Shown here piece by piece: positions 8,584 to 49,417 of a stretch of DNA of 64,000 nucleotides (positions are counted from its first letter, which is position 1; each line of letters begins with the position of its first letter). The translations under genes were made by a program, and so were the position numbers. Source of the stretch: an uncultured delta proteobacterium (GTDB lineage: Bacteria; Desulfobacterota; Binatia; Binatales; Binataceae); assembly GCA_963717045.1 (NCBI GenBank), contig CAVQVD010000015.1, positions 687,747-751,746 of the forward strand. Direction: 5' to 3'. Under the pieces are notes generated by a model that saw only the letters and a list, made by a program, of their open reading frames with translations, was not told the origin of the DNA and did not search any database.

Positions 8584-8598
8584 ACGGAGAGTTGCGAC

Positions 8599-11259: not shown

Positions 11260-11303
11260 GTTATGGCGGATGGGCCACCCGTCGCGGTGGGCTTTGGCGG
11301 GCG

Positions 11304-13924: not shown

Positions 13925-13965
13925 ATGAAATCACGCACGGCGCGCTGGACCGCGCGGCTCGTAGT

Positions 13966-15593: not shown

Positions 15594-15730
15594 GCTTGCT
15601 CCTCATCATCCTGAATGCCGCTGAAAACTGCTGAGACACCGCTGAGACCCGCTGACACTCTAGCAAACCGCGGTCATTCGAATCCTTCGTCCGTCGCTCA
15701 TAGGCTTCAGTGCGAAACTTTTGGCCATTC

Positions 15731-15755
15731 GCGAAACGCATTGTGTGCGTTGCGC
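15731..15755. promoter_or_regulatory. imperfect 10-bp inverted repeat (GCGAAACGCA-N5-TGCGTTGCGC) in 460-bp intergenic region upstream of GNAT gene; candidate operator
   Basis: Seen directly in sequence; function unknown. Confidence 0.2.
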
Positions 15756-16056
15756 GAACAATGCCAAGACATTGCTGAGTCAAGCAGCATCTATGCCATC
15801 GTTTACCGGCAATCCACGGCCACCAACGCTTTCCTTCAAAGAGCAAGCAGTGCCCATTCGTTGTGCTTGCGCCATTAGCGTGTGCACATGATGTCTACTA
15901 AACGCTACGGGTGCGACTTGAATAGATGTGATATTGAGACGAGGATCGTTGTAGCCTGGGGGTCGAGTAATGAACTCGGCCGCGAGCCCGATAGCTGCGC
16001 AGGCTTGCGCGTTTCAGGCTGGCAGTGTAGTCGCGCGGGTGGGGGGACGCAAAACG

Positions 16057-16641: not shown

Positions 16642-16842
16642 CGGATTCTCCTAACGGCGAGCGCCGCCCCAATGACCTGTAGGATCAGAATCGCAACAAC
16701 TATCTGCAACTGAAGGGTATCAAATGATCGACTCTTTGCGGAGCAGTCTGCGCTTCGTCCTCACCAGTTTTTCAATTGACCAAACCGGAGAAATGGCGCA
16801 TCGTTGGGTACCTAAGGCGCAAGATAATAGGGTACCTCAAGA

Positions 16843-24786: not shown

Positions 24787-25070
24787 CAGACCTTTTCCTG
24801 TGGTTGGGCCTGTTGCTTGCCCTGGGTTTTTAGCGCTGGTCTGGAAGTGCGCCTGCAGCCGCTCTCCTTAAAGCTACATTTTGCGCCGACCATGGCGAAA
24901 GTGCATCCTACGTCGGGCATCTTTTCCCACTGGACGGCTGCCTGTTGGGCCTGGAGCCCCAGCTTTCCGAGCGCGGGCGAAAAGGCGGCGGCCGCCATGA
25001 GCGATCAGCCCTAGCCAGCAGTTCTGTTGACGCGGGCGGATGCTTCGCGTTATCGCCTTGGTTGAAACCT

Positions 25071-26375
25071 ATGCACGACGCGACCTCGCGATGGGATCAC
25101 CTGGTGCAGGAGGGGCGAGTGCATCGCTCGCTCTACACCGACGCCTCGATCTTCGCCGAGGAGATGACCCGGATTTTCGGCGGTACCTGGGTTTATCTCG
25201 GCCACGAGAGCGAAATCAGCAAGCCCAACGATTTCGTCACCCGCAATCTCGGCCTGCGGCCGATTATCCTGACCCGCGATGGCAGCGGCAAAATCAACGC
25301 GCTGATGAACCGCTGCTCGCATCGCGCAGCGACGGTGTGCCGCGCGCGTGAGGGTTCGGCGCGCTATTTCACCTGCGGCTATCACGGATGGACCTACAGC
25401 AATAGCGGCGAGTGCGTCTCCGTGCCGGGCGAGGACGCATACGGGCCCGATTTTCGGATCGCCGACTATAACCTCGCAAGGATTGCTCGCGTAGAGATTT
25501 ACCGGGGATTCATTTTCGGCACTCTGAACCGCGAGGCGCCGGCCCTGGTCGAGCACCTGGGCGCGGCGCGCCCGCTGATCGATCAGTGGCTGGATCGCTA
25601 TCCGGGGGCGGAGGTGGTTGTACGCAGCTCCGCTCAACGGATGGTCATGGGCGCTAACTGGAAACTGGTATACGACAATGCGGGCGACGGCTATCATCCG
25701 CCGTTCTCACATCGTTCGTTACTGCTGATGACCGCGCGTCGCCACGGACCCGACCGCGACATGTCGTACTACGGAACGAGCGCGCCCGACGATTGCGCTA
25801 TGTATACGCAGGCGCTCGGCAACGGCCATACTTTTATCGATCAGCGGCCCGAAATGCATGCGGGTTCGGCCTGGGAGCGGCAGCGGCCGCAGCCGGGGCG
25901 GGAGACCTACGAGGCGCAACTTCGCCGGCGCCTCGGCGATGAGGAGGCGAAACGGCTGCTGGAGGTCGCGGTCGGATCGGGGATGAACCTCAACGTCTTT
26001 CCCAACCTGCTCATCATCGGCAACCAGATTCAGGTGGTCGAGCCGCTAGCGGTCGACCGGGTTCAGGTGACATGGTATGCGACCACGCTCGAAGGAGTGC
26101 CGGACGAGATCAACCTGCTGCGAATGCGCACGCAGGAGGATTTCCCCAATTTCGGCGAGGTCGATGACTGCGCGAATTTCGAGGCCTGTCAGCAGGGTAT
26201 GGCGATTCCGGAGCTCGAGTGGATCGATATCAGCCGCCATCTTCGCACCGGCGTCGAGCGGACCGACGCCCAAGGCGTCATCACCGGACCGATAAGCGAC
26301 GATCTCCATTTCCGCGCCTACTACAAAGAGTGGAAGCGGCTGATGAGCGCGGAGCTGAAGCTTACGGTGGGATAG
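25071..26375 (+). CDS. Rieske non-haem iron ring-hydroxylating oxygenase, alpha subunit
   Basis: Rieske CSHRAATVC...CGYHGW; mononuclear Fe block; start chosen at ATG 25071 (MHDATSRWDHLV). Confidence 0.85.
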   Translation: MHDATSRWDHLVQEGRVHRSLYTDASIFAEEMTRIFGGTWVYLGHESEISKPNDFVTRNLGLRPIILTRDGSGKINALMNRCSHRAATVCRAREGSARYFTCGYHGWTYSNSGECVSVPGEDAYGPDFRIADYNLARIARVEIYRGFIFGTLNREAPALVEHLGAARPLIDQWLDRYPGAEVVVRSSAQRMVMGANWKLVYDNAGDGYHPPFSHRSLLLMTARRHGPDRDMSYYGTSAPDDCAMYTQALGNGHTFIDQRPEMHAGSAWERQRPQPGRETYEAQLRRRLGDEEAKRLLEVAVGSGMNLNVFPNLLIIGNQIQVVEPLAVDRVQVTWYATTLEGVPDEINLLRMRTQEDFPNFGEVDDCANFEACQQGMAIPELEWIDISRHLRTGVERTDAQGVITGPISDDLHFRAYYKEWKRLMSAELKLTVG

Positions 26376-26388
26376 GAGACCGGAGTTC

Positions 26389-26970
26389 GTGACCAGGGAC
26401 GACTCGACCGCTGGGGAGCCCTCGCTCTATGTGAATGACGCGCTGTACGAGAGGCTGATGTCGCTTGATCGTCTGTGGAAGCAGCCTGGCGAGCCGCCGG
26501 CGCGGGAGCTCGAGGAGTATTGCGAGCGTCTGATCAAGCGCGAAGCCCGGCTGCTCGACGACGGTGAGTTCGAGCGCTGGCTCGAACTGTTCAGCCGCGA
26601 ATGTATCTATTGGATACCGCTTGGGCGGGGCAACGATCCCCGGCGCGAGGTGACGATCGAGTTTCACGATCGGCGGCGGCTGGTGGATCGGGTCGCGCGG
26701 CTGCGCACCGGGAGCGCCTATTCGCAAATTCCGCCCACCCGCACCTGTCATCTTCTGAGCAATCTGGAGATTTTCCCGAGCGGCGCGGACGAACTCGCGG
26801 CCCGGGCGAATTTTACGATTCACACCTACCGGTGCGGCGTTCGTCGTACGCTGGCTGGCTGGTGCGGGTACCTTTTTGTCAAAGAGGGCGGTGGCTGGAA
26901 GATTGCGCTGAAACAAATCAACCTGATCGACGCCGACGAGGGCCAGGAGAACAACTCCTTTTTCCTGTGA
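26389..26970 (+). CDS. ring-hydroxylating oxygenase beta subunit (NTF2/SnoaL-like)
   Basis: About 190 aa, immediately downstream of alpha subunit, beta-subunit-like pattern. Confidence 0.75.
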   Translation: MTRDDSTAGEPSLYVNDALYERLMSLDRLWKQPGEPPARELEEYCERLIKREARLLDDGEFERWLELFSRECIYWIPLGRGNDPRREVTIEFHDRRRLVDRVARLRTGSAYSQIPPTRTCHLLSNLEIFPSGADELAARANFTIHTYRCGVRRTLAGWCGYLFVKEGGGWKIALKQINLIDADEGQENNSFFL

Positions 26971-27045
26971 CGCCGCGGTCCGTTGCGGCCGCGCCTGCCG
27001 TTCTCCGACGTCGAGCCGGGACGTGCGGCGATAGCGGGGTGACAA

Positions 27046-28527
27046 TTGGCTGGATCGGATGAGAAGCAACCGTCGGGCCTCTCGCGCCCAGAATTCGTCG
27101 AGCGCCATGGCCTTTGGACGCTAGCGCAAAAAGAGCGTGTTCAGGGGGTTCGCGACACGATCGAGCGTCACCGGATAACCTCGGTGCGGGTCGTATTCGC
27201 CGACCAGCACGGAATCGCGCGCGGCAAAACGCTGACTGCGCGAAACTTTCTGGCCGCCCTCGAACGTGGCCACGCCGTGGTAAGCACGCTGTTCGCGTTC
27301 GATACCTCAAATCATGTCGCCTTCCCGGTTTTCACCGGCCAGGGCGGTCTGCCGCTCGCTGGGGCCGGCGGTTCCGGCGACCTTCTGATGGTTCCTGACC
27401 CGGAGACCTTTCGCGTGCTGCCATGGGTTCCCGCCACGGCCTGGGTGTTGTGCGACCTGTACCTGCCGGACGGCGCGCCGGTGCCTATCGCGCCCCGTTA
27501 CATCTATCGGCGGGCGCTCGAAGAGCTGAAGCGCAAGGGCTACGGATCGATGGTGGGTCTCGAAGTCGAGTTCTATGTGATGAAGCTCGAGGACGCCTGT
27601 CTGCGTCCCGAGCAGTCCGGACAGCCGCCGGATCCGCCGCAGGTCAATTTGCTGTCTCACGGCTTCCAGCATCTGGCCGAGCAGAAGATCGACGAGATGC
27701 AGCCGATACTCGAAACCTTGCGCGAAAATCTGGAGGCGCTTGGTCTTCCGATTCGCAGTCTCGAGACCGAATGGGGCCCGAGCCAATGTGAAGTCACTTT
27801 CGAGCCCGAAACGGGGCTACGACCCGCCGATGACATGCTCCTGTTCAGGAGCGCGGTGAAGCAGATCTGTCGGCGCCACGGATACCATGCGACATTCATG
27901 TGCTGGCCGGCGCTGCAGAACGTCTATGCGAGCGGCTGGCATCTGCATCAATCGCTGTACTCGCTGGCGACCGGCGAAAACGCGTTTGTGGCGCCCGACT
28001 CCTCGCAACTGCTATCGGCTACCGGCCGCGATTTCGTCGGTGGACTGCTGCATCATGCGGCAGCAAGTTGCGTCTTCAGTAACCCGACGATCAACGGCTA
28101 CAAGCGGCTGCGTCCCAACTCTCTCGCGCCACATCGGGCCAACTGGGCCACGGAGAATCGAGGCGCGATGATTCGCGTAATCGGCAGTCCGACGGACCCT
28201 GGCACGCATCTTGAGAACAGGATTGGAGAACCTGCCGCCAATCCATACCTGTACCTGGCGGCAAACCTGATCGCGGGTATGGATGGGGTCGAGAAGCGGA
28301 TCGATCCGGGCCCTCCGACCAGCGATCCCTATGCCGACGCCGACCGCGCGGTACTGCCGCGGTCGCTGATGGATGCGGTGGGCGCGCTCAAACATAGTGC
28401 GCTGTTTCGGGAGAAGATGGGCAACGATTTCATCGACTACCTGGTAGCGCTGAAGGAATTCGAGATTTCGCGTTTCCTTTCGTTCGTTACCGACTGGGAG
28501 CACCGCGAGTACTTCGAGATGTTTTGA
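27046..28527 (+). CDS. glutamine synthetase-like gamma-glutamyl-amine ligase family protein (GmaS/PuuA/AtdA1/IpuC-type)
   Basis: GS catalytic domain blocks (GLEVEFYV, EYGPSQCE, NGYKRLRP); paralog of 57883-59322. Confidence 0.8.
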   Translation: MAGSDEKQPSGLSRPEFVERHGLWTLAQKERVQGVRDTIERHRITSVRVVFADQHGIARGKTLTARNFLAALERGHAVVSTLFAFDTSNHVAFPVFTGQGGLPLAGAGGSGDLLMVPDPETFRVLPWVPATAWVLCDLYLPDGAPVPIAPRYIYRRALEELKRKGYGSMVGLEVEFYVMKLEDACLRPEQSGQPPDPPQVNLLSHGFQHLAEQKIDEMQPILETLRENLEALGLPIRSLETEWGPSQCEVTFEPETGLRPADDMLLFRSAVKQICRRHGYHATFMCWPALQNVYASGWHLHQSLYSLATGENAFVAPDSSQLLSATGRDFVGGLLHHAAASCVFSNPTINGYKRLRPNSLAPHRANWATENRGAMIRVIGSPTDPGTHLENRIGEPAANPYLYLAANLIAGMDGVEKRIDPGPPTSDPYADADRAVLPRSLMDAVGALKHSALFREKMGNDFIDYLVALKEFEISRFLSFVTDWEHREYFEMF

Positions 28528-28679: not shown

Positions 28680-30314
28680 ATGGGCGAGCGTGGAGCACCG
28701 GTCTCACTAGCAGTCGCATCTATCGCGATTTCGTTCTTGAGCGTGATTTCATTTTTAAGTTTGACGGGCGTGGCGGAAGCGCAGCAGAAGAACAACAACA
28801 CGCTGCTGGTATGCACGGCGTGTCATATACCCAAGGACGGCAAGCTGGATTCGATCGAATCGGTGCGGATGACACCCGAGGGCTGGCGGATGACGCTCAG
28901 CCGAATGATTCGCAATCACGGTCTGCAGCTCAAAGAGGACGAGGCTCACAATATTCTCAAGTACCTCAGCGACAATTACGGTTTGGCGCCCTCCGAGATC
29001 GCTCCGTACGAATATGCGCTTGAACAGCGCAACAGCACCTTGCAGGACTTCGATCGGGCGGGTTTGCCGCCCAACGTGATGGGCGCTTGCGTGCAGTGTC
29101 ATTCGTTCGCGCGGATCGCCCTGCAGCGGCGGACGCCGGAGATGTGGAAGCGGCTGCCCGACCTGCATGAGTACTTCGTGCCGTTCGTGGCTTCCGACAC
29201 GTCCTCGGCGGGCAATCTTATCGACCCGTGGCGCAAGGTGGCGACCGGAGAGGCGGTGCCATACTTAGCCAAGCGCTTCCCGTTCGAGGCGCCTGCGTGG
29301 AAGGAATGGCAGGCGGCAGCGAGGCCGGATTATTCGGGGAAATGGATGGTGGTGGGGCACGACCCGGCCAAGGGCGGCGACTATACCGGAGTGCTCACGG
29401 TGACCTCGTCGGGTGACGATCAGTATCGCGGCAAGTTCACCCATGAGTTCGAGGATGGCTCCTCGGTGACGGGCAGCACGGAGGCGGTGCTGTACGCGAA
29501 GTTCGAGTGGCGCGGGCGGGCCAAGGTGGGGGACCGGCAGGAAGCAGAGATTTTCTTCGGGAACGAGAACGGCACCCGGATGCACGGGCGGCGCCTGCTG
29601 ACGCCGGTGGGCGATCTTGGGATGGACGAGACCCTGTACAAGGCTGGGAGCGCAGCCACGCTGCTGACCGCCATCCCCAAGTCGATCCAAGCCGGACAGA
29701 CGGTCAAGGTGCGGCTGTTCGGGATGCATCTGCCCGCCAGCGTGAGCGCGGACGCGATTAGCTTTGGCGATGGCCTAAGGGTGAAATCGGTCAGCCAGTC
29801 CGATGACAACACGGTGGTCGCCGAGGTGGAGGCCGACGCCAACGCCAAGCCAGGACCGCGCAGTGCGAAGATCGCAGGAGTCGAGGGCGAGCAGCCGATT
29901 TACCTGTACAAAACCGTGGATTACATCAGCATTACGCCCGAACGGGGCTATGGGCGGCCGGGCGGGACGCGTGGCCCCAAGGTCAACCAGCAATTCGAGG
30001 CGAGCGCGTTCACCCATGGGCCGGATGGCAAGCCGGTCAACATCGGGCGGGTCGGCCCGCTGACCTGGGACGTGGCGGAGCGGGTGAGCAGAATCGGCGA
30101 CGACGACGTGCTGTACGTCGGGAAGGTCAATCCATACGGAACATTTATTGCCGCCTCCGACGGACCTAACCCGGAGCGCGAGCATAGCGAATCCAACGTG
30201 GGCGACGTGTGGGTCGAAGCATGGTACAAGCCCGACCCGTCGAAGCCGCCGATGGGCGCGCGGGCCTTCATGCTGTTGATGCCGCCGAAGTTCGTGTTCA
30301 ATCCAATAAATTGA
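28680..30314 (+). CDS. qhpA: quinohemoprotein amine dehydrogenase alpha subunit (dihaem cytochrome c)
   Basis: Signal peptide, two CxxCH haem motifs (CTACH, CVQCH) in N-terminal domain, about 540 aa. Confidence 0.8.
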   Translation: MGERGAPVSLAVASIAISFLSVISFLSLTGVAEAQQKNNNTLLVCTACHIPKDGKLDSIESVRMTPEGWRMTLSRMIRNHGLQLKEDEAHNILKYLSDNYGLAPSEIAPYEYALEQRNSTLQDFDRAGLPPNVMGACVQCHSFARIALQRRTPEMWKRLPDLHEYFVPFVASDTSSAGNLIDPWRKVATGEAVPYLAKRFPFEAPAWKEWQAAARPDYSGKWMVVGHDPAKGGDYTGVLTVTSSGDDQYRGKFTHEFEDGSSVTGSTEAVLYAKFEWRGRAKVGDRQEAEIFFGNENGTRMHGRRLLTPVGDLGMDETLYKAGSAATLLTAIPKSIQAGQTVKVRLFGMHLPASVSADAISFGDGLRVKSVSQSDDNTVVAEVEADANAKPGPRSAKIAGVEGEQPIYLYKTVDYISITPERGYGRPGGTRGPKVNQQFEASAFTHGPDGKPVNIGRVGPLTWDVAERVSRIGDDDVLYVGKVNPYGTFIAASDGPNPEREHSESNVGDVWVEAWYKPDPSKPPMGARAFMLLMPPKFVFNPIN

Positions 30315-30330
30315 TACGCTGTTTTTTGAG

Positions 30331-31821
30331 GTGCAACCTGTGCTACCTGACGAACTGGAATTCCGGCCCGAGAACGCTCATGTGGTCAATCACAGCGGAA
30401 TGACCGTGCTGGTGGCCGCGAAGACCATGTCGTTGTTCACGATGGATCCGCTGTCGGAAGCTGTGCTGCAGTACTGCGAGAGCAAGCGGCGGTTCACGCT
30501 GGAAGATGTCGTCAAGCAACTCGCACAACCCGCTGGCGAGTTCGTCGGCGAAGACGTGGCGCACGTGGTGCGGGAATTCATGAACGTGGACGTGCTGATG
30601 GGTGGACAGAACAGCGCCCCAACCGCGCTCCCGTTCGTGGACACGGAAAAGTTTCCGCTAAGTTCCCTGGTGCTCAACGTCACCAATAAGTGCAACCTGC
30701 ACTGCACCTACTGCTACGAGCCGGACGGAGCCAAGTACGGCCCGGCGCCAGTGCGGATGGAATGGGAGACGGCGCGCTCGAGCGTGGACTTTCTGTTCGA
30801 GAAGGCGGGGCGAAACCGCGAGGTCAATATCGTTTTCTTCGGCGGCGAGGCGCTGCTCAATTTCAAGCTGATGAAGCAGGTGGTCGATTACGCCGAAAAT
30901 AAGAGCGTGGCGGTGGGCAAGAAGGTAGACTTTTCGATCACCACCAACGGGACGCTGCTGGTTGACGAGATAATCGACTTTCTGCAGGAGCATCGCTTCG
31001 GCGTGACGATCAGTATCGACGGGCCCAAGGAGATTCATGACCGCCGCCGCTTCTTTCTCAGCCACGCCGGCGAGAAGAAAGGCTCGTACGACCAGATCAT
31101 GAGCCGCGTCGAACGCTTGCTCGAGCGCTACACGGCGCGCCCGATCGTGGCCCGGGTCACAGTGACCAAGGGCGCGGTCGAAATCGTTCGGATTTACGAA
31201 CACCTGAGCGGCCTGGGATTCTTCGAGGTCGGGTTCTCGCCGGTGACCGCGAAGCCGGGACTTGATTACGGCCTCGAAGCGGCCGACCTGCGCGAGGTGC
31301 TGGCCGGGTTCAAGGAACTCGGCGGGCGCTACGTGGAGCGGGCGATCGGCGGTCAGTACACAGGCTTCTCGAACCTGAGCACGATGCTGACCGACCTGCA
31401 TCTTGGGACCAACAAGATGTTCCCGTGCGGCGCGGGCCTGGGGCTTCTCGACGTCGACGGCAACGGCGACGTATACCTGTGTCATCGGTTCCCCGGGGTC
31501 GAGGAACATAAGTACGGCAATGTGAAGCAAGGTGGAATCGAATACGGACGTCTAACCGAATTCGTCAACAGCGTGCAGGTGGGCAACAAGCCAGTGTGCC
31601 AGACCTGCTGGATTCGCGGAATCTGCGGGGGTGGATGTTATCACGAGGCACTGCAGGAGTTCGGTGAAGCGGCGCTGCCCAATTTGCACTATTGCGTATT
31701 TCTGCGCGAGTGGACTGAGTATGGGATCGGGGTGTTTACCGAACTCGAGCAGAAGAACCCGGGCTTTGTCGAAAAATATATCGTGCGAAGCCGTGGAGAT
31801 GTGCCCAAGGAACTGAGTTGA
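30331..31821 (+). CDS. qhpD: radical SAM/SPASM maturase for QHNDH gamma subunit
   Basis: CNLHCTYCY radical-SAM motif plus C-terminal SPASM Cys cluster (CQTCWIRGICGGGCYHE). Confidence 0.85.
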   Translation: MQPVLPDELEFRPENAHVVNHSGMTVLVAAKTMSLFTMDPLSEAVLQYCESKRRFTLEDVVKQLAQPAGEFVGEDVAHVVREFMNVDVLMGGQNSAPTALPFVDTEKFPLSSLVLNVTNKCNLHCTYCYEPDGAKYGPAPVRMEWETARSSVDFLFEKAGRNREVNIVFFGGEALLNFKLMKQVVDYAENKSVAVGKKVDFSITTNGTLLVDEIIDFLQEHRFGVTISIDGPKEIHDRRRFFLSHAGEKKGSYDQIMSRVERLLERYTARPIVARVTVTKGAVEIVRIYEHLSGLGFFEVGFSPVTAKPGLDYGLEAADLREVLAGFKELGGRYVERAIGGQYTGFSNLSTMLTDLHLGTNKMFPCGAGLGLLDVDGNGDVYLCHRFPGVEEHKYGNVKQGGIEYGRLTEFVNSVQVGNKPVCQTCWIRGICGGGCYHEALQEFGEAALPNLHYCVFLREWTEYGIGVFTELEQKNPGFVEKYIVRSRGDVPKELS

Positions 31822-31892
31822 TCGGGAACTGAGTTGCTGCCACCGGGCGCAGAATCCCGCGCCGTGCTCTGGACCCGTAACAGGAGGAGAAC

Positions 31893-32210
31893 ATGAAACA
31901 CTTGAAGGCGGCGAACAAGAAGGCCCGTGCGGTTGAAGCAATTCGCACGGGGGGAGACGTGGTCGGGATGGTGCAGCCGATGGGCTGTACCACGATTTTC
32001 AATCCCGGCTGGGAAGCCGACCCTTGGGGTGGCGCGCATGCGATGTGCAGTCCCACGGAAGCCGATCTGGCGGGATGCTCGGGCGTGTGCTGGTGGCCGG
32101 CACAAGTGCCGGACAGCCTGCAGAACTATCCTGAATGGGCAAAGGGCTGCTCCGGTGTGAACATGGAAGACTGGAGAAGCCTGAACGTGGAGTTCCCCAA
32201 AGTTAAGTAG
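31893..32210 (+). CDS. qhpC: quinohemoprotein amine dehydrogenase gamma subunit (CTQ and thioether-crosslinked peptide) with leader
   Basis: Numbering from Met25, Cys7/Glu16, Cys27/Asp33, Cys37/Trp43 and Cys41/Asp49 fall exactly at published QhpC crosslink/CTQ positions; CSGVCWWPAQV. Confidence 0.8.
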   Translation: MKHLKAANKKARAVEAIRTGGDVVGMVQPMGCTTIFNPGWEADPWGGAHAMCSPTEADLAGCSGVCWWPAQVPDSLQNYPEWAKGCSGVNMEDWRSLNVEFPKVK

Positions 32211-32365
32211 AGACGAACGCCTCGGCCGCCGCTGGCCGAGCAACTACATTGGCTTGTCGAGGGGCGTCGGCCTTGCATGCAAGGTGCGCGAGCCAGTCGC
32301 TTCGTCGCGGCCGCGCGCTCAAAGGGTGATCAGGTAGGCTGCAAGGCGAGTCGCAAAGGATTGTC

Positions 32366-33517
32366 ATGACCAACAAGAATGGTTGGCAGCTACGTCTGTA
32401 CGGTTCGTGGATTTTTGGACTCGCGCTGATGATGTGGGCGGGCACTGCGTCGGCCAAATGGTACATGGTCGTGGGGACGCTGCCCAACCTCATTCAGGTC
32501 GTCGACACCACGACTGACAAAGTTGTCAGGACTATTCCGTTGGAGGGTCCCGGGCCGATTCTGCAGGTCTCGACCGATTCTGCGACGCCGCGGTATGCCT
32601 ACGCGACGACCAACCTGGACCAAGCCGTCGCCGTAGTTGACCTGGAACAGGGTAAGCAGGTCGCGACCTACAAGCTGTCGAGCGATACCGAGACCGTACG
32701 GGTTTCGGCTACCAACCTTAATCCCAAGGGCGACAGGTTGTACATAAGCGAGCTGCCGCTCAAGGTGACCCCGGGCCGCTATCAGCACGAAGAGCAGCGC
32801 TTCGTGGTTTACGACACTGCGACCAACAAGGAAGTAAAGTCCTTTCCGGCGCCGGCGCAGACCCTATCGTTCGCATTCTCGCCTGATGGCAAACGGCTCT
32901 ACGCTTTCTGCGTTGGGCAGGACGTGATGGTGCTCGACGCGAACGACGGCCACGTGCTGGGCACGATTCCGCTCGCCCATCGCAATATCACGGGCATCCG
33001 CGCAACGTATGGGCTGCCCCTCCTGGCGAATTACCAGGAGCAGAATTACCTGATCACTTTCGCGATTATCGTCGAGGATTCAATAACCGATACCGACACG
33101 CTGGCGGTTGGCCTGCTCGACCTCAAGCAGCAGCAGCCGGCGCTGCAGATTATCGAGACCGAACCCTTCGTCGAGAACTGGTATTCGGTCGAAGGCATCG
33201 CCACCCCGCCCAACCTGCACAAGGCGTATTTCGTATGGAACGATCTCTGGAAAATCGATTACCAGACCAAGAAGCGGGAAAAAGCAGTCTCTCTTCCCAA
33301 TAGCCAAGCGGTGCCGCTGCTCTCGCCCGACGGCAAGAAGGTGTATTGCGGCGGCCAGTGGCATGCTCTCTTTGTTTACGATGCCAACACGCTCAATCAC
33401 ATCGACGACGTCGAACTCGGCCATTCGATGGCCGGGATCGGGATGCGGTTCGTGCAGAACGATAAAGATCTGGCGGCACCCGGATCCACCAGCCAGGATC
33501 CGCAAAGCTCACAATAG
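32366..33517 (+). CDS. qhpB: quinohemoprotein amine dehydrogenase beta subunit (seven-bladed beta-propeller)
   Basis: Signal peptide, 383 aa, YVTN-like propeller repeats, position in qhp operon. Confidence 0.7.
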   Translation: MTNKNGWQLRLYGSWIFGLALMMWAGTASAKWYMVVGTLPNLIQVVDTTTDKVVRTIPLEGPGPILQVSTDSATPRYAYATTNLDQAVAVVDLEQGKQVATYKLSSDTETVRVSATNLNPKGDRLYISELPLKVTPGRYQHEEQRFVVYDTATNKEVKSFPAPAQTLSFAFSPDGKRLYAFCVGQDVMVLDANDGHVLGTIPLAHRNITGIRATYGLPLLANYQEQNYLITFAIIVEDSITDTDTLAVGLLDLKQQQPALQIIETEPFVENWYSVEGIATPPNLHKAYFVWNDLWKIDYQTKKREKAVSLPNSQAVPLLSPDGKKVYCGGQWHALFVYDANTLNHIDDVELGHSMAGIGMRFVQNDKDLAAPGSTSQDPQSSQ

Positions 33518-33571
33518 TAAGTCAGGTTTGCGAGCGGATATCTGTTAACCGCATCCGCGAAAATTTAACTG

Positions 33572-34357
33572 GTGAGGAAGCCAACCGGCCGCCGTCTCCG
33601 TATCGCGGCCACGTCGCCGGAATTCGATCCCGAATCATTAGGCGCGCGCACGGGCGCGGGCGTTCGCGTCGCGCTCATCGATAGCGGGATCAACTCCGCC
33701 CATTCACACGTTGGTCCGCTCGCTGGCGGAGTAGCTTTTAGCGCCGGCTCTAACAGCAAGGTGCTGCAGAGCTCTGATTTTAACGACACTCTGGGACACG
33801 GTACCGCGCTGGCCGGAATTCTGAAATTCAAAGCGCCCGAGGCGACATTGTTCGCCGTGAAGGTTTTCACAGACCGCCTGGTGACGTCGATCGAAATTCT
33901 CGAAGCGGCACTCGGCTGGGCGATAGAGCAGAAGATGCACGTGATCAATCTGAGTCTAGGGACCGACAACCCCGCGCATCGTGCGCGGATGGCAAAGATA
34001 GCGGCGAGGGCCAAGCGCGCCGGAACGTTGATCGCCGCCTCGTCTCCACCCGGACGGTCAGACATGCTTCCCGCGGCCCTCGACGGCGTCTTCGGTGTGG
34101 CAGCGAGTGACGATTGTTCGTGGAGCGAGTACCGATACGTCCCGGACGACCCGATTCATTTCAGGGCTCACCCGTCGCCGCGCCCGTTGCCCGGCCTGGA
34201 CCAGTCGCGCAACTATCGCGGGCACAGCTTTGCCTCGGCGCATCTGAGCGCTTTGCTGGCGCTGCTGATTGAGGATCGCCCGGAGTTGGGATTCGCGAAC
34301 GCTCGCGAGCGCTTGTTGAAATGTACCGGACTGCCGCTGCCGTTGAAGAATCCTTGA
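33572..34357 (+). CDS. qhpE: subtilisin-like S8 serine peptidase (QhpC leader peptidase)
   Basis: Catalytic triad blocks ALIDSGI, HGTALAGI, GHSFASAH; GTG start. Confidence 0.8.
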   Translation: MRKPTGRRLRIAATSPEFDPESLGARTGAGVRVALIDSGINSAHSHVGPLAGGVAFSAGSNSKVLQSSDFNDTLGHGTALAGILKFKAPEATLFAVKVFTDRLVTSIEILEAALGWAIEQKMHVINLSLGTDNPAHRARMAKIAARAKRAGTLIAASSPPGRSDMLPAALDGVFGVAASDDCSWSEYRYVPDDPIHFRAHPSPRPLPGLDQSRNYRGHSFASAHLSALLALLIEDRPELGFANARERLLKCTGLPLPLKNP

Positions 34358-34399
34358 TGATCGTTCGCGGGAACGCACGCGGCCGTTGCCCCGCTTGTT

Positions 34400-36140
34400 C
34401 TAGGCAACGCGCTCCTGCGCCCGCATTTTCTGCGACACGCCGTCGGGGTGGTCGCCGTAGCTGCCGCTCCACAACACGCGGCCGTTGTCGAGCACCATCA
34501 CGTGATCGTCCTGCCGGATCGAGGACAGCCGATGCGTGATCATTATCACCGTGCGGCCGGGCAGCGCTCGTTCAACAGCGGCCCGGATTTCAGCTTCGCT
34601 GACCACGTCCAGCGCCGAAAGGGCTTCATCAAGGACCAGGATTTTAGGACCCTTGAGTAGCGCACGAGCGATAGAGATGCGCTGCCGTTGGCCGTCGGAG
34701 AGCGTCGCTCCATGCTCGCCGACCGGGTTATCGTAGCCATCGGGCAACGAGCTAATGAAATCGTGGAGTCCGACCGCGCGCGCGGCGGCGATCACCTGCT
34801 CCCGCGAGGCGTCCGGACAGGCATAGCGGAGGTTTTCGATCATCGGCGCGTGAAACACGAAGGCCTGATGTCCGGTCACTACCAGTTGGTTTCTGAGCCA
34901 TGCCAGATCGAGAGTGCGGAGCTCGTGGCCGTCGAGCAGGATCGAGCCGGCCGCCGGGTTCGATCAACCGGGCCATCAGGTCGACGATCGAGGTCTTACC
35001 GGCGCCGCTTGGGCCAACAATTGTGAATCTCCCGCCTGCGGGAATTTTGAAATTCAGGTCGTCGAGAATCGGTACGGCTGGATCATGGCTGAAGGTGACC
35101 CGCCGAAATTCGATCTCTCCGTGAACCTCGGGCAGCCGGAGGGTTCCTGGCGCGCTTTCGTTTTCGGTTGGCAGGTCAAGGAATTCGAAGATACGGTCCA
35201 CGGAGACGCCCGCGCGCTGCAGCCGCAGGTAGAGATCGATCAGCGCCTGTAATGGACTGAACGCGCGCATCTGATAGGCCGAGAATGCCACCAGACTGCC
35301 GATCGTCATGTGCCCTTCGATTACCAAGTATCCGCCGTAAAGCGTCACCAGTGCGGAACCGAGAAATGTGCTGGCGGCAGAAGCGCTGCTGCCCAGATAC
35401 GCGAGCATCTCGAGCCGCGTGACTGAGTTGACGAATGCGACGCCCAGGGCGGAAAGCCGGGCGTGCTGGACTTTTTCGGCTACAAAAAGCTTTACAAATT
35501 TTATTGCCGACAGTGACTCTACCAAAAATGACGAAATTGCCGCGTTGAGTTCGCGGACGGCGCGAGTCTGATTCACGATCAACGGTCGAAACCGCATCAC
35601 TCCGTACAGTTGCAACGGCACCAGCGCCAAGCTGAGTAAAAACAGCTTCCAGTTCAACCACAGGAGAAAACCGGTCGCGGCGAACAGCGTGAAAATGTTT
35701 GCGATAAAATTGAAGCCAGCGTCGGTCAGCATCGCTTGCACTTCAGCGATGTCGGTATTGAGACGCGAAAGAAGGTCGCCGACTTTTGCCCGCACGTGAA
35801 AACGCATCGGCAGCGCTTGCAGATGCTCGAACAGATGCTGGCGTAGATTGAACAGCACCCGCGCCGTTACACTGGTGTAGTAGTAGCGATTGAACGCGCC
35901 GAGCACATAGCTCGCGACGGTAACGGCGATCATTACGCCGGTGAGAATCCAGAGCAGGCGTAGATTGCGGGCCTGAAGGACATCGTCAATCAGAATCTTG
36001 GTGAAAATAGGCCAGAGCAGGCCCAAAATCGTATTCGAGAACGACAACAGAAAAATGATGGCGAGCTTGGAACGAAATCCCGAAAGAAACGGCAGCAGTC
36101 GGCGAACGCGCGAAAGGCTGACTTTGCTGAGCGGCCTCAT
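34400..36140 (-). CDS. qhpF: ABC exporter, fused permease-ATPase (QhpF-like); frame broken by 1-nt indel near 34940-34960 (fragments 34930-36140 and 34400-34879)
   Basis: Six-TM domain then Walker A GPSGAGKTS in one frame; LSDGQRQR signature, Walker B ILVLDEA and H-loop continue in adjacent frame; start chosen at ATG 36140 with GGAG RBS. Confidence 0.7.
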
Positions 36141-36383
36141 TAAGCTCCATTTTTCTCGAGCTATGAGGCGCATTAGTCCATAACCCGAGCCCCGGCGTAA
36201 TCCGACGCCGCATTCGTTCCTGACCATTCGATCATCATCCGAAGCGGCTATCGACTTTCGCGTGCGCAATGATAGTAATCCGCTCGGCAGGAAAGCAAGA
36301 TAAGAGAGAATCAGTAGAAGATCGACTCAAATCAGTAAAGGACTGACCTAGATCGGTAAGGGACTGCTGTCGAATCGAAGCAA

Positions 36384-37121
36384 ATGGAAAGAACCACCGA
36401 TATCGCCAATCCGAAGGACGGCTCCCAACTGATGCTGATTCCCGAGGGTGAATTCCTGATGGGCAGCGATGATGGCTATCCCAGCGAGCGCCCCGCCCAT
36501 CGCGTCTTCGTGAGCCCGTTTTATATCGCCAGAACCCTTGTCACCAACTCCCAATACCGAAGCTTTGTGCTGGAGACCGGATACGCGGCGCCTTACATGG
36601 ATGATCCCCGGGCCGAGTGGGCGAATTGGGATCGGGACAGCAAAAACTTTCCCGCCGGCCGTGAAACGCACCCGGTGGTGCTCGCCTCGTGGATTGATGC
36701 TTCGGCTTACTGCGAATGGGCAGGGACCAGACTGGCTACCGAGGCCGAGTGGGAAAAGGCGGCTCGCGGAGGCTTGGACGGCAAGCTGTTTCCGTGGGGC
36801 GATGAGGAAATCTCCCACGAGCTAGCCAACTACGACAATCAGGACGGTACCACTCCGGTGGGCGTTTATCCGCCAAATGGCTATGGTCTTTACGACATGG
36901 TGGGTAATGCGTGGGAATGGGTGGCCGACTACTATGACCCCAAATACTATTCGCGGTCGCCCATGCGCGATCCCCGCGGACCGGAGCAAGGCTCATCGCG
37001 GGTGCTGCGCGGTGGTTCGTGGCTGCTGTTTGCCCGTTACTGCCGAGTTTCGTACCGATTCAGGAATAGTCCAAACTTCCACGCTAGCTTGATTGGCTTT
37101 CGTGTGGCTCGGTCGCTATGA
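36384..37121 (+). CDS. formylglycine-generating enzyme (FGE/SUMF1) family protein
   Basis: LMLIPEGEFLMGSDD, YCEWAG, MVGNAWEWVADYY, RVLRGGSW blocks typical of FGE domain. Confidence 0.8.
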   Translation: MERTTDIANPKDGSQLMLIPEGEFLMGSDDGYPSERPAHRVFVSPFYIARTLVTNSQYRSFVLETGYAAPYMDDPRAEWANWDRDSKNFPAGRETHPVVLASWIDASAYCEWAGTRLATEAEWEKAARGGLDGKLFPWGDEEISHELANYDNQDGTTPVGVYPPNGYGLYDMVGNAWEWVADYYDPKYYSRSPMRDPRGPEQGSSRVLRGGSWLLFARYCRVSYRFRNSPNFHASLIGFRVARSL

Positions 37122-38556
37122 GAGCGCCTTCTCGGTAGAGCCGGACCAGGGCCGCACGCACCATGCCGGAATCCGCGCGGGTTCCCTCGCGTCGCTTCAG
37201 ATAGCCCGCCACGATATCGGTTATCGCGGGCTTCTTTTTGATCTCCTTGAGCAGAGCCGGTACGCATACGTTGTGAAGGAATCGAAGACCCCGCGTGTTA
37301 CTGTCGCTCACGAAAACCTCACGGGTTTTCACGCGCGGCCATTCGAGCACTGGGCGCCGCTCGATCCTGACGTCCGAGGCGAGGCGTACGTGCGAAACCT
37401 CGGTAGGTGGCTTGAGCGTCGCTCCGTTGGCCGGCGCGCGCGAGAGCGAAGCCAGCAGGCCGCTGCGCTTCTGCCAGAAAACGGAATCCGGCCATCGCCG
37501 TTCCTGGTCGTAGTATTCGGCGGATTGGCGATAGTGCGTCGAGTAAGCATTGCTCTGTGCGTCGCGATAGAAGCTAAGAGCGCTTGCGGATGACGCCGGG
37601 CTGCTCAGGCTAGTGTTTATCACCGCGGCCCCGGTGATTGCCGACGCCATCGCTGTCTGCACGCCCTCTGAAGAGAGCGGATCGATGAATAGTCCGGCGT
37701 CGCCCAAAAGCAGAAAGCGCTCGCCGGCGAACTGACGAGCGGTATACAAGGTCGCGTCCGAAACCCGGAGCGGGTGCGGTAGGCTGGCGGTCGCAAGAAA
37801 TTTCGAGACGTATGAAAGCCTGTCTATTTCGGACAGATAGAAAGCCCCGAGTCCGAGTTCCCGAATGCGCCGGCCCTCGCTCCAATCGACCAGCAGAGTG
37901 ACGTTGCGCAGCCCGTTCTGCAGCGGGACCGACCATACCACGCCGTTCTCATACGCTTCGAGTAGAGTGTTGCCGAAATCATCGCCCGCGGGCGCCGCGG
38001 CGTCGCGCCAGTAGCCGGTTACCGCAAGCGTTTGGAAGTCCGGGTCGCGTTGGCGAAAATCCTGACGCGCGAGAATTCCGGCATGACCGCTTGCATCGAC
38101 AAAAAATCGCCCCCTGATCGGGGCCTCGCGCGCGGTATGCACCGTCACGCCACGCCTATCGATGCGGACGCCATTGACGCCCGCGCCGAGCCTGACCTCC
38201 ACTTTTTTCTGGCGACGCGCATTCTCCAGCAACAGCATATCGAAGGTCTCGCGCCAGACCTGGAAGCCCATTCTGGATTTGTCTGCGCTGTAGTAACCGG
38301 TGCGCGGCTCGGGAGTGCCCCAGCACACGGTGTGGCCGGCCATTCGGAGGAACCCGCCGCTCTCCACCGTTTGGCGCAACCTGAGAAAATCCAGGACCGA
38401 AAGGATGCTGGGGGTCAGCGATTCACCGATTCGGTAGCGGGGAAATTTGCTTTTGTCCAGCAGCAGGACCCGAAAGCCGAGCCCAGCCAGCAGATAGCCG
38501 GCGGTGCTGCCAGCCGGACCTGCGCCGGCGATTACAACGTCGGGGTTTGTGGCCAC
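37084..38556 (-). CDS. qhpG: FAD-dependent monooxygenase of tryptophan-halogenase-like fold (QhpG-like)
   Basis: VVIAGAGPAGSTAGYLLA GxGxxG motif, about 490 aa, adjacent to qhp genes. Confidence 0.7.
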   Translation of the reverse strand: MATNPDVVIAGAGPAGSTAGYLLAGLGFRVLLLDKSKFPRYRIGESLTPSILSVLDFLRLRQTVESGGFLRMAGHTVCWGTPEPRTGYYSADKSRMGFQVWRETFDMLLLENARRQKKVEVRLGAGVNGVRIDRRGVTVHTAREAPIRGRFFVDASGHAGILARQDFRQRDPDFQTLAVTGYWRDAAAPAGDDFGNTLLEAYENGVVWSVPLQNGLRNVTLLVDWSEGRRIRELGLGAFYLSEIDRLSYVSKFLATASLPHPLRVSDATLYTARQFAGERFLLLGDAGLFIDPLSSEGVQTAMASAITGAAVINTSLSSPASSASALSFYRDAQSNAYSTHYRQSAEYYDQERRWPDSVFWQKRSGLLASLSRAPANGATLKPPTEVSHVRLASDVRIERRPVLEWPRVKTREVFVSDSNTRGLRFLHNVCVPALLKEIKKKPAITDIVAGYLKRREGTRADSGMVRAALVRLYREGALIATEPHESQSS

Positions 38557-45080: not shown

Positions 45081-46304
45081 ATGATGGATTCAAGCGCTCC
45101 GCCAGGAGGAGGCGCCAGGGATGTGTACCTCGCACAAAGGGGGCGGACGTCCATTCGTTGGGCTTGGGTCACGCTCCTTCTGGTTGCCGTCGTCGTAGCC
45201 GGATACTTTTTGCTGGCCCGACTCGTCGGATCTCATAGCCCCTCCGCCTCGGCCGCGGTTCACCCGGGGGTGCCGGTTTCGGCGATGGCAGTGACGCGCG
45301 GCGACCTCAACCGCTACCTGACCGCGATAGGAACCGTGACTGCCTTCAACACCGTGACGGTGAAGACGAGAGTCGACGGCCAGATCGTCAGAGTCGCCTT
45401 CAAGGAAGGTCAGACAATGCATCAAGGCGACCTGCTGGTGGAAATCGATCCGCGGCCATACCAGGCGACACTGGAACAGGCCGTGGGGCAACTGGCGAAA
45501 GATGAAGCCACGCTGGCCAATGCGAGAATCACCTTGGAGCGGGATCGTGCGTTATTTCAACAGGGGGTGATCGCAGCCCAGGACTTTGACAATCAGCAAT
45601 CGCTGGTAGGCCAGTCCGCGGGAGCGGTGGCAAGCGACAGGGCCAATATCGCGGCTGCCAAGGTGCAGGTGGCATATACCCGGATAACCTCGCCGATCAC
45701 GGGACGCATCGGGTTGCGCCTCGTGGACCAGGGCAACATCGTGCACGCGACCGATGCCACGGGTCTCGCGGTAATTACTCAGTTGCAGCCGATAGCGGTC
45801 GATTTCAGCATTCCCGAAGACAACCTGCCACAAATAATCAAGGACATGCGGCAGGGACAGGAGTTGCCCGCCGACGCGTTCGACCGGGAGCTCAAGACGC
45901 AACTCGCGACGGGTACGCTCGAAACCTTCGATAGCCAGATCGATCAAACTACCGGAACGATCAAGCTGAAAGCGGTCTTTTCTAACTCTGACTATTCGTT
46001 GTTTCCCAACCAGTTCGTCAATATCAAATTGCTGGTGGACACGCTGCGCGATACCCTATTGGTGCCGGCGGCCGCGGTGCAGAGAAATCCGCAGGGTACG
46101 TTTGTATATGTAGTCAAACGAGATAACACGGTCGAGGTGCGCACCGTAGCCGTAGCCGCTTCGCAGGGAGACATGATCGCTCTCAGTTCCGGGTTGGCGG
46201 CGGGCGAGATGGTGGTGACCGACGGACTGGACAAGCTGCAGGCGGGCACCAAGGTGATCGCCCAGGTGCCAGTCAAGGCAACGGTGCAGAGGAGCAGCCA
46301 GTGA
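45081..46304 (+). CDS. mdtA: RND efflux membrane fusion (periplasmic adaptor) protein
   Basis: Biotinyl-lipoyl/beta-barrel MFP pattern, 4-nt overlap with downstream permease. Confidence 0.8.
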
Positions 46305-49300
46305 ATCCGTCGCGGCTGTTCATTCTGCGGCCGGTGGCAACTTCGCTCCTGATGGCCGGTATCCTGCTCGCGGGTCTGGTCGCCTATCGCCAGTTACCGG
46401 TCTCGGCGCTGCCGGAGGTGGACTACCCGACGATCCAAGTTCTCACGTTTTATCCCGGAGCGAGCCCGGACGTGATGGCGTCGTCGGTCACCTCGCCGCT
46501 GGAGCGCCAGTTCGGCCAGGTCCCCGGGCTCAACCAGATGACCTCGAACAGCTCATTCGGCAGTTCGGTCATAACGCTCCAGTTCGTACTCAGTCTCAAC
46601 ATCGACGTGGCTGAGCAGGAAGTGCAGGCTGCGATCAATGCAGCTTCGACCTATTTGCCCACGGATCTGCCTAATCCGCCAATCTACAACAAGATCAATC
46701 CGGCTGACGCTCCGATCCTTACGCTCGCCCTGACCTCGACTCAGCTGCCATTGACCCAGGTGGAAGATTTGGCAGACACGCGCCTGGCGCAAAAAATATC
46801 GCAGGTGTCCGGGGTTGGACTGGTCAGTATCAGCGGCGGGCAAAAGCCGGCGGTGCGGGTCCAGGCCAATCCGACTGCGTTAGCTTCTTACGGCCTGAGC
46901 CTCGAGAGTCTCCGCAGCGCGATCGCGGCGGCCAACATCGACGAGGCCAAGGGAAATTTCGACGGGCCGCAGCAAGCCTACACCATCGGCGACAACGACC
47001 AGTTGCTCACGAGCGCGGACTATCGGCCACTGATAGTGGCCTACCGCAATGGCGCGCCAGTGCGGCTGGAAAACGTGGCTCGGATCATCGACGATGCCGA
47101 GAACGTCAAAGAGGCGGCCTGGATGAATACGGTGCCGGCGGTGATTCTCAACGTTCAGCGGCAGCCGGGCGCCAACATCATCGCGGTGGTGGATAAAGTG
47201 AAGGCGCTGTTGCCGCGCCTGCAGAGCTCGCTGCCGGGATCGGTGAAGGTGGTCGTACTCACGGATCGCACCACTACGATTCGGGCCTCAGTGCAGGACG
47301 TGGAGTTCGAGTTGCTGCTGACTATCGCGCTGGTAGTGATGGTCATCTTTTTGTTCCTGCGCAATCTATCGGCGACGGTCATTCCCAGCGTGGCGGTTCC
47401 GCTTTCCCTAATTGGCACGTTCGGCGTGATGTACCTGCTGGGGTACAGCCTCAACAACCTAACACTCATGGCGCTGACAATCTCGACCGGCTTCGTGGTC
47501 GATGATGCAATCGTCATGATCGAGAATATCGCCCGCTATATCGAGGAAGGTGACGCGCCGCTCGCGGCAGCTTTGAAAGGCTCGCAGCAGATTGGCTTCA
47601 CGATTTTGTCTTTGACCGTCTCGCTGATCGCGGTGCTGATTCCGCTGCTCTTCATGGGTGACATCGTGGGCCGCCTGTTCCGCGAATTCGCGATCACGCT
47701 CGCCGTCACCATCCTGGTTTCGGCGGTGGTTTCGCTGACGCTGACCCCGATGATGTGCGCGAGGCTGCTAAAGCATACGCCCGAGGCCGAACAAGGCCGA
47801 TTCTACCGCGTGACCGGACGAATGTTCGACGCCACCATCGAGTACTATGGGACGACCCTGCAATGGGTGCTGCGCCATCAGAATGCGACGCTATTGGTGG
47901 CGGTGGGCACGTTGGTTCTCACAGTAGTGCTCTACATCATCGCGCCCAAAGGTTTCTTTCCCCTACAGGATACCGGGGTGATTCAAGGAGTATCGGAGTC
48001 GTCGCCCGCCGCGTCCTTTCCGGCGATGGTGGAGCGCCAGCAAGCGTTGGCGCAGGTGATTCTCAAAGACCCCGCGGTCGAAAGCCTGTCCTCGTTCATT
48101 GGCATCGATGGGATCAACACCACCATGAACAGCGGCCGATTTCTGATCAACCTCAAGCCGCTGGCGCAACGCAAAGTCAACATCAGTGCGGTGATTGACC
48201 GCCTGCAGCCGCAACTTGCCAAGGTTCGGGAAATCACGCTGTTTCTGCAGCCGGTCCAGGATTTGACCGTCGAGGACCGGGTCAGCCGCACGCAGTATCA
48301 GTACAGCCTGGAAGACCCCAACGTGAATGAGTTGAACACCTGGACCGCCAAGCTGATGGCGAAACTCGCCACGGTGCCAGAGTTGCGCGACGTAGCTACC
48401 GATCAGCAGAACAACGGTTCACAGGTCGAGTTGGTAATCGATCGCAGCACCGCGTCGCGGCTGGGGATCACGCCGCAGATGATCGACGACACGCTCTATG
48501 ACGCGTTCGGGCAGCGCCAGGTATCCACGATGTTCACGCAGCTAAATCAATATCACGTGGTGCTCGAGGTCGATCCCGAATTCCAGAGCAATCCGCGCGC
48601 GCTTCGCGACATCTATCTCTCGTCGCCGACTGGAGGATCGGTGCCGCTCAGCACCTTCGTGCACTTCGAGCCGAGCAAAGTGCCCTTGATCGTGAGTCAT
48701 CAGGGGCAATTCCCGGCGGTCACTATCTCGTTCAATCTGGCGCCCGGCTATTCGCTCGGCAACGCGGTAACCGCGATCGAGACCGCCCAGCGCGAGATTG
48801 GGATGCCGGCCAGCGTCGAGACCGCATTCCAAGGCACCGCGCAGGCCTTCGAGGCTTCGCTCCGCAACGAACCGCTTTTGATCCTGGCTGCGCTCGTCAC
48901 TGTGTACATCGTCTTGGGCGTGCTGTACGAAAGTTATATCCATCCGATCACGATTCTCTCGACGCTGCCATCGGCAGGGGTCGGAGCGATTCTCGCTCTG
49001 TTGCTTTGCGGCAGCGATCTCAACGTGATCGCCCTCATTGGAATCATTCTGCTGATCGGTATTGTCAAAAAAAACGGCATCATGATTGTCGATTTTGCGC
49101 TCGAAGCCCAGCGAAAGGAGGGCAAGCCCGCGACCGACGCTATTTATCAGGCTTGCCTGCTTCGCTTTCGGCCGATCATGATGACCACGATGGCCGCGCT
49201 GCTCGCCGGCTTGCCGCTGGCGCTGGGCAGCGGCACTGGCTCGGAGTTGCGCCGTCCGCTCGGAATCGCGATGGTCGGGGGACTGCTGCTCAGTCAACTG

Positions 49301-49417
49301 CTGACGCTGTATACGACCCCAGTGATTTTTCTCGCCTTCGAGCGCCTCGCGGCACGGACGACAACGGCGTCTGGTGACTCCGCGCACCCTGAGCCGGACC
49401 TCGCGCGCGCCTCATGA
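46301..49417 (+). CDS. mdtB: RND multidrug efflux permease (MdtB-like)
   Basis: 1038 aa, 12-TM RND pattern, tandem with second permease. Confidence 0.85.

Follow-up and report, generated by a model that had tools for sequence, protein, structure and literature searches.

Whether a member of the uncultured phylum Binatota is equipped to make a quinohemoprotein amine dehydrogenase (QHNDH) is the question raised by a 64-kb stretch of DNA from an uncultured bacterium of the Binataceae; the stretch in its full length is called the window here, and all coordinates are positions in it. In a preliminary description, the region 28680-38556 had been presented as a complete qhp locus of non-canonical architecture that should yield a functional enzyme dependent on cysteine tryptophylquinone (CTQ). 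Our analysis points to a qhp cluster for QHNDH and its maturation machinery, originating from an uncultured Binatia (Binataceae). We put the probability of this assignment at roughly 0.88, because family models, matches to subunits in the PDB, the conservation of residues and motifs, and synteny agree.

Gene Content of the qhp Locus

Genes were assigned from a listing of open reading frames (ORFs) together with Pfam and NCBIfam scans, the latter read as bit scores against the equivalog cutoff, and a sequence search of the PDB (Table 1). For comparison, a scan with a QhpC alignment, taking one genome per species, gave 80 loci. All qhp genes were mapped by tblastn on every locus compared, and loci are cited below by L number.

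Equivalog cutoffs were exceeded by four of the seven qhp genes. The predicted α subunit, QhpA, contains all four Pfam α domains (PF09098, PF14930, PF09099 and PF09100), an N-terminal segment resembling a signal peptide and two CXXCH haem motifs at residues 45 and 137; it matched 1JMX_A (5.8e-78) and 1JJU_A (1e-61) in the PDB. In QhpD, which has 11 cysteines overall, the motif CX3CX2C was located at residue 121, and a motif check recovered the haem, radical SAM, flavin adenine dinucleotide (FAD) and Walker motifs in the respective products, with QhpF read in its repaired form. The order qhpA-D-C-B-E on the plus strand, as given in the preliminary description, was confirmed by the ORF listing and the family scans. 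Further downstream, the exporter gene, a gene with a formylglycine-generating enzyme (FGE) domain and qhpG were found as described, but only qhpF and qhpG lie on the minus strand; the FGE-like gene, which had been grouped with them, is on the plus strand.

Some observations weigh against the assignment as a qhp cluster. The products of qhpB and qhpE score under their NCBIfam cutoffs (162.5 against 223 bits and 155.6 against 165 bits, respectively), qhpF is not intact in the window, and no AraC-type QhpR was found that could account for induction by amines. For both qhpB and qhpE, the qhp model was by far the top NCBIfam match. The sub-threshold score of QhpB probably reflects divergence from the proteobacterial model rather than a different family, because its top PDB matches are QHNDH β chains aligned over the full length (1JJU_B, 7e-24, residues 33-353 against 3-321; 1JMX_B, 1.3e-18). 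Mapping by tblastn placed qhpB after qhpC in nearly all surveyed loci. The position of qhpE is conserved across these loci as well, and in relatives the gene is called with a length of 251 amino acids (aa). The exporter gene matched generic ABC-exporter models only, and the name qhpF was assigned from its position in the locus.

Table 1. Coordinates of the qhp locus and of other features of the window, with the basis of each assignment (bits are model scores followed by the equivalog cutoff where applicable).
Feature	Positions	Strand	Basis
qhpA, α subunit (dihaem c-type cytochrome)	28680-30314	plus	TIGR03908, 391 bits, cutoff 274
qhpD, radical SAM/SPASM maturase (Cys-to-Asp/Glu thioethers in QhpC)	30331-31821	plus	TIGR03906, 537 bits, cutoff 453
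qhpC, γ subunit precursor, leader of about 25 residues	31893-32210	plus	NF037958, 126 bits, cutoff 50
qhpB, probable β subunit (seven-bladed propeller)	32366-33517	plus	TIGR03907, 162.5 bits, under cutoff 223.2
qhpE, probable subtilisin-like leader peptidase	33572-34357	plus	NF049966, 155.6 bits, 10 below cutoff 165; Peptidase_S8, 2.5e-17
qhpF-type ABC exporter (transmembrane and nucleotide-binding domains), split	34400-36140	minus	ABC_membrane and ABC_tran matches over two ORFs (36140..34752 and 34879..34400)
FGE-sulfatase-domain gene, 245 aa	36384-37121	plus	PF03781, 223 bits; no NCBIfam model at cutoff
qhpG, homologue of FAD-dependent peptidyl-tryptophan dihydroxylase	38556..37084	minus	NF049967, 251 bits, cutoff 240
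Convergent 3'-end overlap of FGE-like gene and qhpG, 38 nucleotides (nt)	37084-37121	both	Stop codons fix both ends
Conserved 32-nt element, spacer between qhpF and FGE-like gene	36250-36281	plus	Spacer alignment of window, L008, L013, L014 and L017; sequence ATCGACTTTCGCGTGCGCAATGATAGTAATCC
Upstream context: Rieske oxygenase α, co-directional with qhpA	24945-26375	plus	Pfam; NCBIfam sub-threshold
Upstream context: Rieske oxygenase β, co-directional with qhpA	26389-26970	plus	Pfam; NCBIfam sub-threshold
Upstream context: glutamine-synthetase-like ligase, co-directional with qhpA	27046-28527	plus	Pfam; NCBIfam sub-threshold
Copper membrane monooxygenase (CuMMO) operon, C-A-B order	4770-5606, 5657-6454, 6765-8015		AmoC/A/B NCBIfam scores all under equivalog cutoffs
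ORF of 181 aa after the CuMMO operon	8038-8583		No Pfam match
GMC oxidoreductase	8599-10167		
SCO1/SenC copper chaperone homologue	10167-10787		

Crosslink and Cofactor Residues of QhpC

The crosslink residues of QhpC and the Cys and Trp of CTQ had been stated to be conserved position for position, and this was borne out by comparison with the crystal-structure sequences from Paracoccus and Pseudomonas. Residues C32, E41, C52, D58, C62, C66, W68 and D74 align with C7, E16, C27, D33, C37, C41, W43 and D49 of 1JJU_C; the same eight residues are kept in the corresponding alignment to 1JMX chain G, and none of them varied among 20 aligned sequences.

A fifth cysteine, C86 in the sequence KGCSG, was present in every Binatia-type and in Acidobacteriota-type QhpC and in no proteobacterial one. 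It sits 7 residues ahead of the invariant Asp of the DWR motif (6 residues in acidobacterial sequences). Since this spacing falls inside the range of 6-9 covered by the three known thioethers, a fourth crosslink via C86 is conceivable. No partner for C86 is evident in QhpA, because all cysteines of that subunit are in the haem motifs; QhpB contains two cysteines, C182 and C328. A correlation of the fifth cysteine with the FGE-like gene was considered and rejected, as the cysteine also occurs in loci without that gene.

Residues 52-56 of QhpC (CSPTE) form a C-x-P-x-E at the second crosslink Cys that is conserved in all QhpC sequences and superficially resembles the FGE motif C-x-P-x-R. We regard the likeness as a mere curiosity, because C-x-P-x-E is also found in genomes without an FGE-like gene.

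Gene Order across qhp Loci

The loci nearest to that of the window, with QhpC 95-97% identical, are labelled Candidatus Binataceae bacterium or uncultured delta proteobacterium (MFD bins), and those of the next tier, at 64-72% QhpC identity, almost all Candidatus Binatia. In the window, A-D-C-B-E run forward and are followed by F in reverse, the FGE-like gene forward and G in reverse. The same order, flanked by the upstream Rieske α/β and glutamine-synthetase-like genes and the downstream DUF1329 gene, was also found in L001, L013 and L014. It recurs with small differences in L008 and L017, and the core E-F-FGE-like-G is present in L096 and L097.

At least five qhp arrangements were distinguished among the 80 loci. 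Proteobacterial loci carry A-D-C-B-F-E-G on a single strand (Oceanospirillales), F-E-G upstream of A-D-C-B (Pseudomonas, Hydrogenophaga) or G divergent from A-D-C-B-E-F (Paracoccus), and the arrangement, order and coding strand of qhp genes are reported to vary across more than 1300 species (PMC7876137). Because close relatives share the order of the window and qhp order varies generally, the architecture is, judged by the loci compared, typical of the Binataceae lineage. The term 'non-canonical' used in the preliminary description could not be upheld for an order that is common to all close relatives, when several arrangements are known.

Many Binatia have a second qhpA-qhpC-qhpB set a few kb downstream (L019, L022, L023, L024, L025 and L033; L020/L021; for example, L022 at 13748-17714). 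This set, which is absent from the window, comes without a qhpD, qhpE, qhpF or qhpG of its own and therefore implies a maturation machinery shared by two QHNDH isoenzymes. In the close relative L016 (Candidatus Binataceae, 6870-11273), tblastn found qhpA, qhpD, qhpC and qhpE only, with no qhpB, qhpF, FGE-like gene or qhpG within 10 kb; this gap may stem from deletion, masking or misassembly.

Assignment of qhpG and Integrity of qhpF

The product of the gene called qhpG, with GAGPAG at residue 11, could also be taken for a flavin-dependent halogenase unrelated to CTQ biogenesis, given a Pfam Trp_halogenase match and a PDB ranking in which CmlS (181 bits) and two other halogenases (141-143 bits) stand above the Paracoccus denitrificans QhpG, 7CTQ (70 bits, 1.4e-18, full length). 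This is highly improbable, since the QhpG model NF049967 was the top NCBIfam match and exceeded its cutoff (251 against 240 bits), whereas the CmlS model reached 218 bits against a cutoff of 900. In the alignment with CmlS, moreover, the residue opposite the catalytic Lys is Met, and WxWxIP has degenerated, GWVWMIP being replaced by GVVWSVP. The characterised QhpG, too, has CmlS as its closest structural relative (PMC7876137). Finally, the gene adjoins other qhp genes in every Binatia locus of sufficient length, and no other qhpG candidate was seen there. With the catalytic Lys and WxWxIP lacking and the NCBIfam cutoffs favouring QhpG, the halogenase was rejected.

The same locus is carried by six metagenomic contigs at 98-99% identity to the window. 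As the preliminary description had noted, the exporter gene is frameshifted: relative to three contigs 98% identical to the window, qhpF has a single extra base at about 34956-34958 (on the coding strand CC becomes CCC, corresponding to GGG on the plus strand), approximately 12 codons past Walker A, and this base is the sole gap column in the four-way alignment. With the base removed, qhpF encodes 579 aa, the same length as the gene called in L001 and L003, and the corrected protein has Walker A at residue 376 and LSDGQ at residue 480. Over 15.4 kb, the window differs from L001 by eight indels, among which the one in qhpF alone breaks a reading frame that is intact in relatives. Five of the remaining seven are intergenic, and two fall in the first 150 nt of a lactonase ORF as drawn, probably upstream of its true start.

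All qhp genes are necessary for expression of the periplasmic enzyme (PMC7876137), and for this reason one base decides whether the locus works. A real extra base should block export of the γ subunit and hence maturation of the enzyme, whereas a sequencing error would mean an intact locus. To call the locus complete and probably functional, as had been done, was thus an overstatement while qhpF is broken just past Walker A. A genuine inactivation in this strain, with a dead exporter and no mature QHNDH in the periplasm, is a possibility to be taken seriously, albeit a doubtful one. It would fit the extent of the truncation, which leaves the main ORF without Q-loop, signature motif and Walker B, and the clean appearance of the remaining assembly, where the other indels against L001 are intergenic or probably upstream of the lactonase start. 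Yet a change of homopolymer length in a GC-rich run is the kind of error that sequencing or assembly typically introduces, the remaining qhp genes are all intact, and 15 of 16 relatives have a stop-free qhpF, the sixteenth (L008) being an assembly full of frameshifts. The window-specific substitutions in qhpF, 10 synonymous and 4 non-synonymous, give no sign of decay; a single one lies downstream of the frameshift, which is too few to be informative. Furthermore, a lookup of the exact truncated product of 462 aa in the contig index returned no record elsewhere, and thus no independent contig with the same lesion.

Predicted Maturation Pathway

For the region read as a qhp cluster, a pathway can be proposed by homology to the P. 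denitrificans system, with the gene roles taken from PMC7876137. QhpC would be synthesised with a leader of about 25 residues, and QhpD would install three thioethers in the cytoplasm, namely Cys32-Glu41, Cys52-Asp58 and Cys66-Asp74. Trp68 would be dihydroxylated by the flavoprotein QhpG while it forms a complex with QhpD and QhpC, the leader would be cut off by QhpE, and the crosslinked γ subunit would be exported to the periplasm by the ABC exporter QhpF. Assembly with the Sec-exported dihaem subunit QhpA and the propeller subunit QhpB is predicted to take place in the periplasm, where the Cys62-Trp68 CTQ would then be completed. The mature enzyme would oxidise primary amines to aldehydes and ammonia, with electrons passing via the haems.

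The FGE-Like Gene

The 245-aa product of the gene between qhpF and qhpG has no signal peptide and matched the FGE-sulfatase fold over the full domain; its best PDB matches were bacterial and human FGEs (1e-48 to 1e-45), and SUMF2 matched at 5.5e-29. Canonical FGE has two catalytic Cu(I)-binding cysteines with a spacing of i, i+5 (Cys336 and Cys341 in human FGE). At this pair, GGSWLLFARYC of the window protein stands against GGSYLCHDSYC of Streptomyces coelicolor FGE, with the first Cys being Leu and the second Cys kept. The motif RGG[SA]W[LM]LF..[FY]CR was found in more than 100 orthologues, so that Leu in place of the first Cys is conserved. The label 'FGE/SUMF1-like' given earlier therefore holds for the fold only, and a canonical FGE was rejected, one of the two catalytic cysteines being missing. 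A sulfatase domain, which would carry the CxPxR substrate, was not detected in any window ORF scanned. Compared with FGE (SUMF1), the protein is shorter and lacks a loop of about 17 residues, and it is like the inactive paralogue pFGE/SUMF2 in not having a complete Cys pair.

Where the FGE-like gene overlaps qhpG, a single DNA segment specifies both C-termini, one on each strand. Gene calls gave an overlap of identical length, 38 nt, in L093, L094 and L095 (around 10689-10726), with proteins 49-66% identical. A metagenome scan with an alignment of the FGE-like protein used two back-translated patterns, of which one proved to be shared by FGEs in general; among the 80 new loci, 75 were without a qhp gene, nearly all of them distant relatives (39-52% identity), and only L096, L097, L098 and L107 were informative. 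On the loci compared, the FGE-like gene is a frequent, though not universal, neighbour of qhpG in Binatia.

Two further genes, h1 (about 150 aa, N-terminal transmembrane helix) and h2 (about 160 aa, signal peptide), adjoin qhpG in L018, L019, L022, L026, L029, L032, L033 and L093-L095 (for example, L093 at 9032-9990). Neither has a Pfam match or a homologue in the window, and both stay beside qhpG even where the FGE-like gene is missing.

FGE-fold enzymes have cysteine thiols as substrates, which would suit an accessory function in QHNDH biogenesis specific to the Binatia lineage, be it on the fifth cysteine, on the Cys-Trp link or as a QhpC-binding chaperone. Binatia loci with the FGE-like gene beside qhpG number at least 15 and belong to two differently rearranged architectures with the identical 3' overlap, whereas none of the approximately 55 surveyed qhp loci of proteobacterial or acidobacterial origin has the gene. 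No enzyme, moreover, has been assigned to the Cys37-Trp43 linking and oxidation with which CTQ formation ends (PMC7876137). Such a role is nevertheless unlikely, because orthologues at 61-76% identity occur without qhpG beside them (L009/L010, L098 and L107), two sensor kinase genes lie between the FGE-like gene and qhpG in L011, and L026 and L029 have qhpG and no FGE-like gene. The fifth cysteine, too, is found in loci without the gene, and one of the two Cu-binding cysteines is missing from its product. Survival of the pair through rearrangement could be due to nothing more than the physical 3' overlap, and in other Binatia the FGE-like gene is the last of a separate h1-h2-FGE unit. It is decidedly improbable that the Binatia QHNDH is a maturation variant in which C86 takes part in a fourth crosslink or another modification and the single-Cys FGE-fold protein is a new accessory of γ subunit processing, for example in thiol handling or Cys-Trp linking.

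Regulation and the Intergenic Element

An AraC-type qhpR had been reported as missing, and Pfam scans of about 62 ORFs across the window, in which no QhpR query sequence was used, indeed gave no AraC or HTH_18 domain. The Pfam-annotated flanks of L001, L008, L011 and L093-L095 contained no AraC domain either. With none in the window or in the annotated flanks of its Binatia relatives, the lack of qhpR looks like a trait of the clade. Two sensor kinase genes are located inside the qhp locus of L011. The ORFs upstream of qhpG in the Paracoccus locus L066 were considered as a source of a QhpR sequence and rejected, being a CoA-transferase and a LysR regulator.

The spacer between qhpF and the FGE-like gene is well conserved only in the 32-nt element listed in Table 1, which has a single occurrence in the window. 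With TCGACT followed by TAGTAAT, the latter as the -10 box, the element looks promoter-like. It was not called by a consensus promoter scan, and the promoter and terminator scans gave no more sites than shuffled controls. Downstream of the element, the window has an insertion of about 75 nt that is absent from L013 and L014. Within this insertion, two imperfect direct repeats of 21 nt stand at 36309 and 36330; according to the spacer alignment, they are weak and not conserved in relatives.

Neighbouring Genes in the Window

The locus had been counted as the third amine-oxidising system of the window. No further amine dehydrogenase or amine oxidase came up in the Pfam and NCBIfam scans of it; what they gave was a divergent CuMMO operon and two pairs of glutamine-synthetase-like and Rieske oxygenase genes (24945-28527 and 57883-60783), and the count was not sustained. 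For both ligases, the top model was γ-glutamylputrescine synthetase, far under its cutoff. Of the two pairs, the first directly precedes qhpA, is co-directional with it and is kept there in L008, L013 and L014. These genes are not a known part of qhp, and the pair hints at a γ-glutamylation/oxygenase route for an amine substrate alongside QHNDH. The CuMMO is probably of the hydrocarbon/CuMMO type reported for Binatota, for which a genome survey describes such enzymes (PMC8262859).

At 45081-52530, a membrane fusion protein gene is followed by two tandem RND transporter genes of 1038 aa each, the ends of which overlap by 4 nt, in an MdtABC-like arrangement. The window also encodes several luciferase-like monooxygenases and pyruvate dehydrogenase E1/E2.

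Comparison with Known Systems

In the uncultured phylum Binatota, the full qhp system occurs in stereotyped form; the main genome survey of that phylum has zero occurrences of qhp or amine dehydrogenase (PMC8262859). This adds modestly to the amine metabolism predicted for a soil lineage of global distribution. Among the other Binatia loci, one arrangement (type II) has h1-h2-FGE forward, G in reverse, F forward and E in reverse, followed by A-D-C-B forward. These loci share with the window the gene set including the FGE-like gene, the 38-nt overlap, the fifth cysteine and the lack of an AraC regulator; they differ in that E-F, as an inverted block, is found at the opposite side of A-D-C-B, and in having h1 and h2, which are absent from the window. 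A second qhpA-C-B copy is carried by many of them.

The CTQ oxidase systems LodA/LodB and GoxA/GoxB, which include a flavoprotein maturase, have no radical SAM enzyme, thioether-crosslinked small subunit, haem subunit or ABC exporter. The QhpG of the window also matched the LodB and GoxB models at sub-threshold scores of 151 and 106 bits, respectively, which reflects the shared flavoprotein chemistry of CTQ biogenesis.

The QHNDH of Pseudomonas putida (1JMX/1JMZ) was matched by the predicted trio of subunits (α, 5.8e-78; β, 1.3e-18; γ, 2.7e-24). In the Pseudomonas loci L087, L088 and L090, F-E-G lie upstream of A-D-C-B on one strand, without an FGE-like gene and without the fifth cysteine in QhpC.

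Compared with P. denitrificans (qhpADCBEF with qhpG and qhpR; 1JJU/1PBY; 7CTQ), qhpF is inverted in the window, qhpG lies downstream instead of being divergent from qhpA, and an FGE-fold gene is inserted between qhpF and qhpG. The window is without an AraC-type qhpR, its QhpC has the fifth cysteine, and its qhpF is frameshifted in this assembly. By tblastn against the Paracoccus loci, QhpC reaches an identity of about 50%, the other proteins one of about 25-35%. The likeness to the Paracoccus system is that all seven structural and maturation genes have homologues in the window, including the dihaem subunit encoded by qhpA, the radical SAM motif of qhpD and the FAD enzyme related to CmlS encoded by qhpG.

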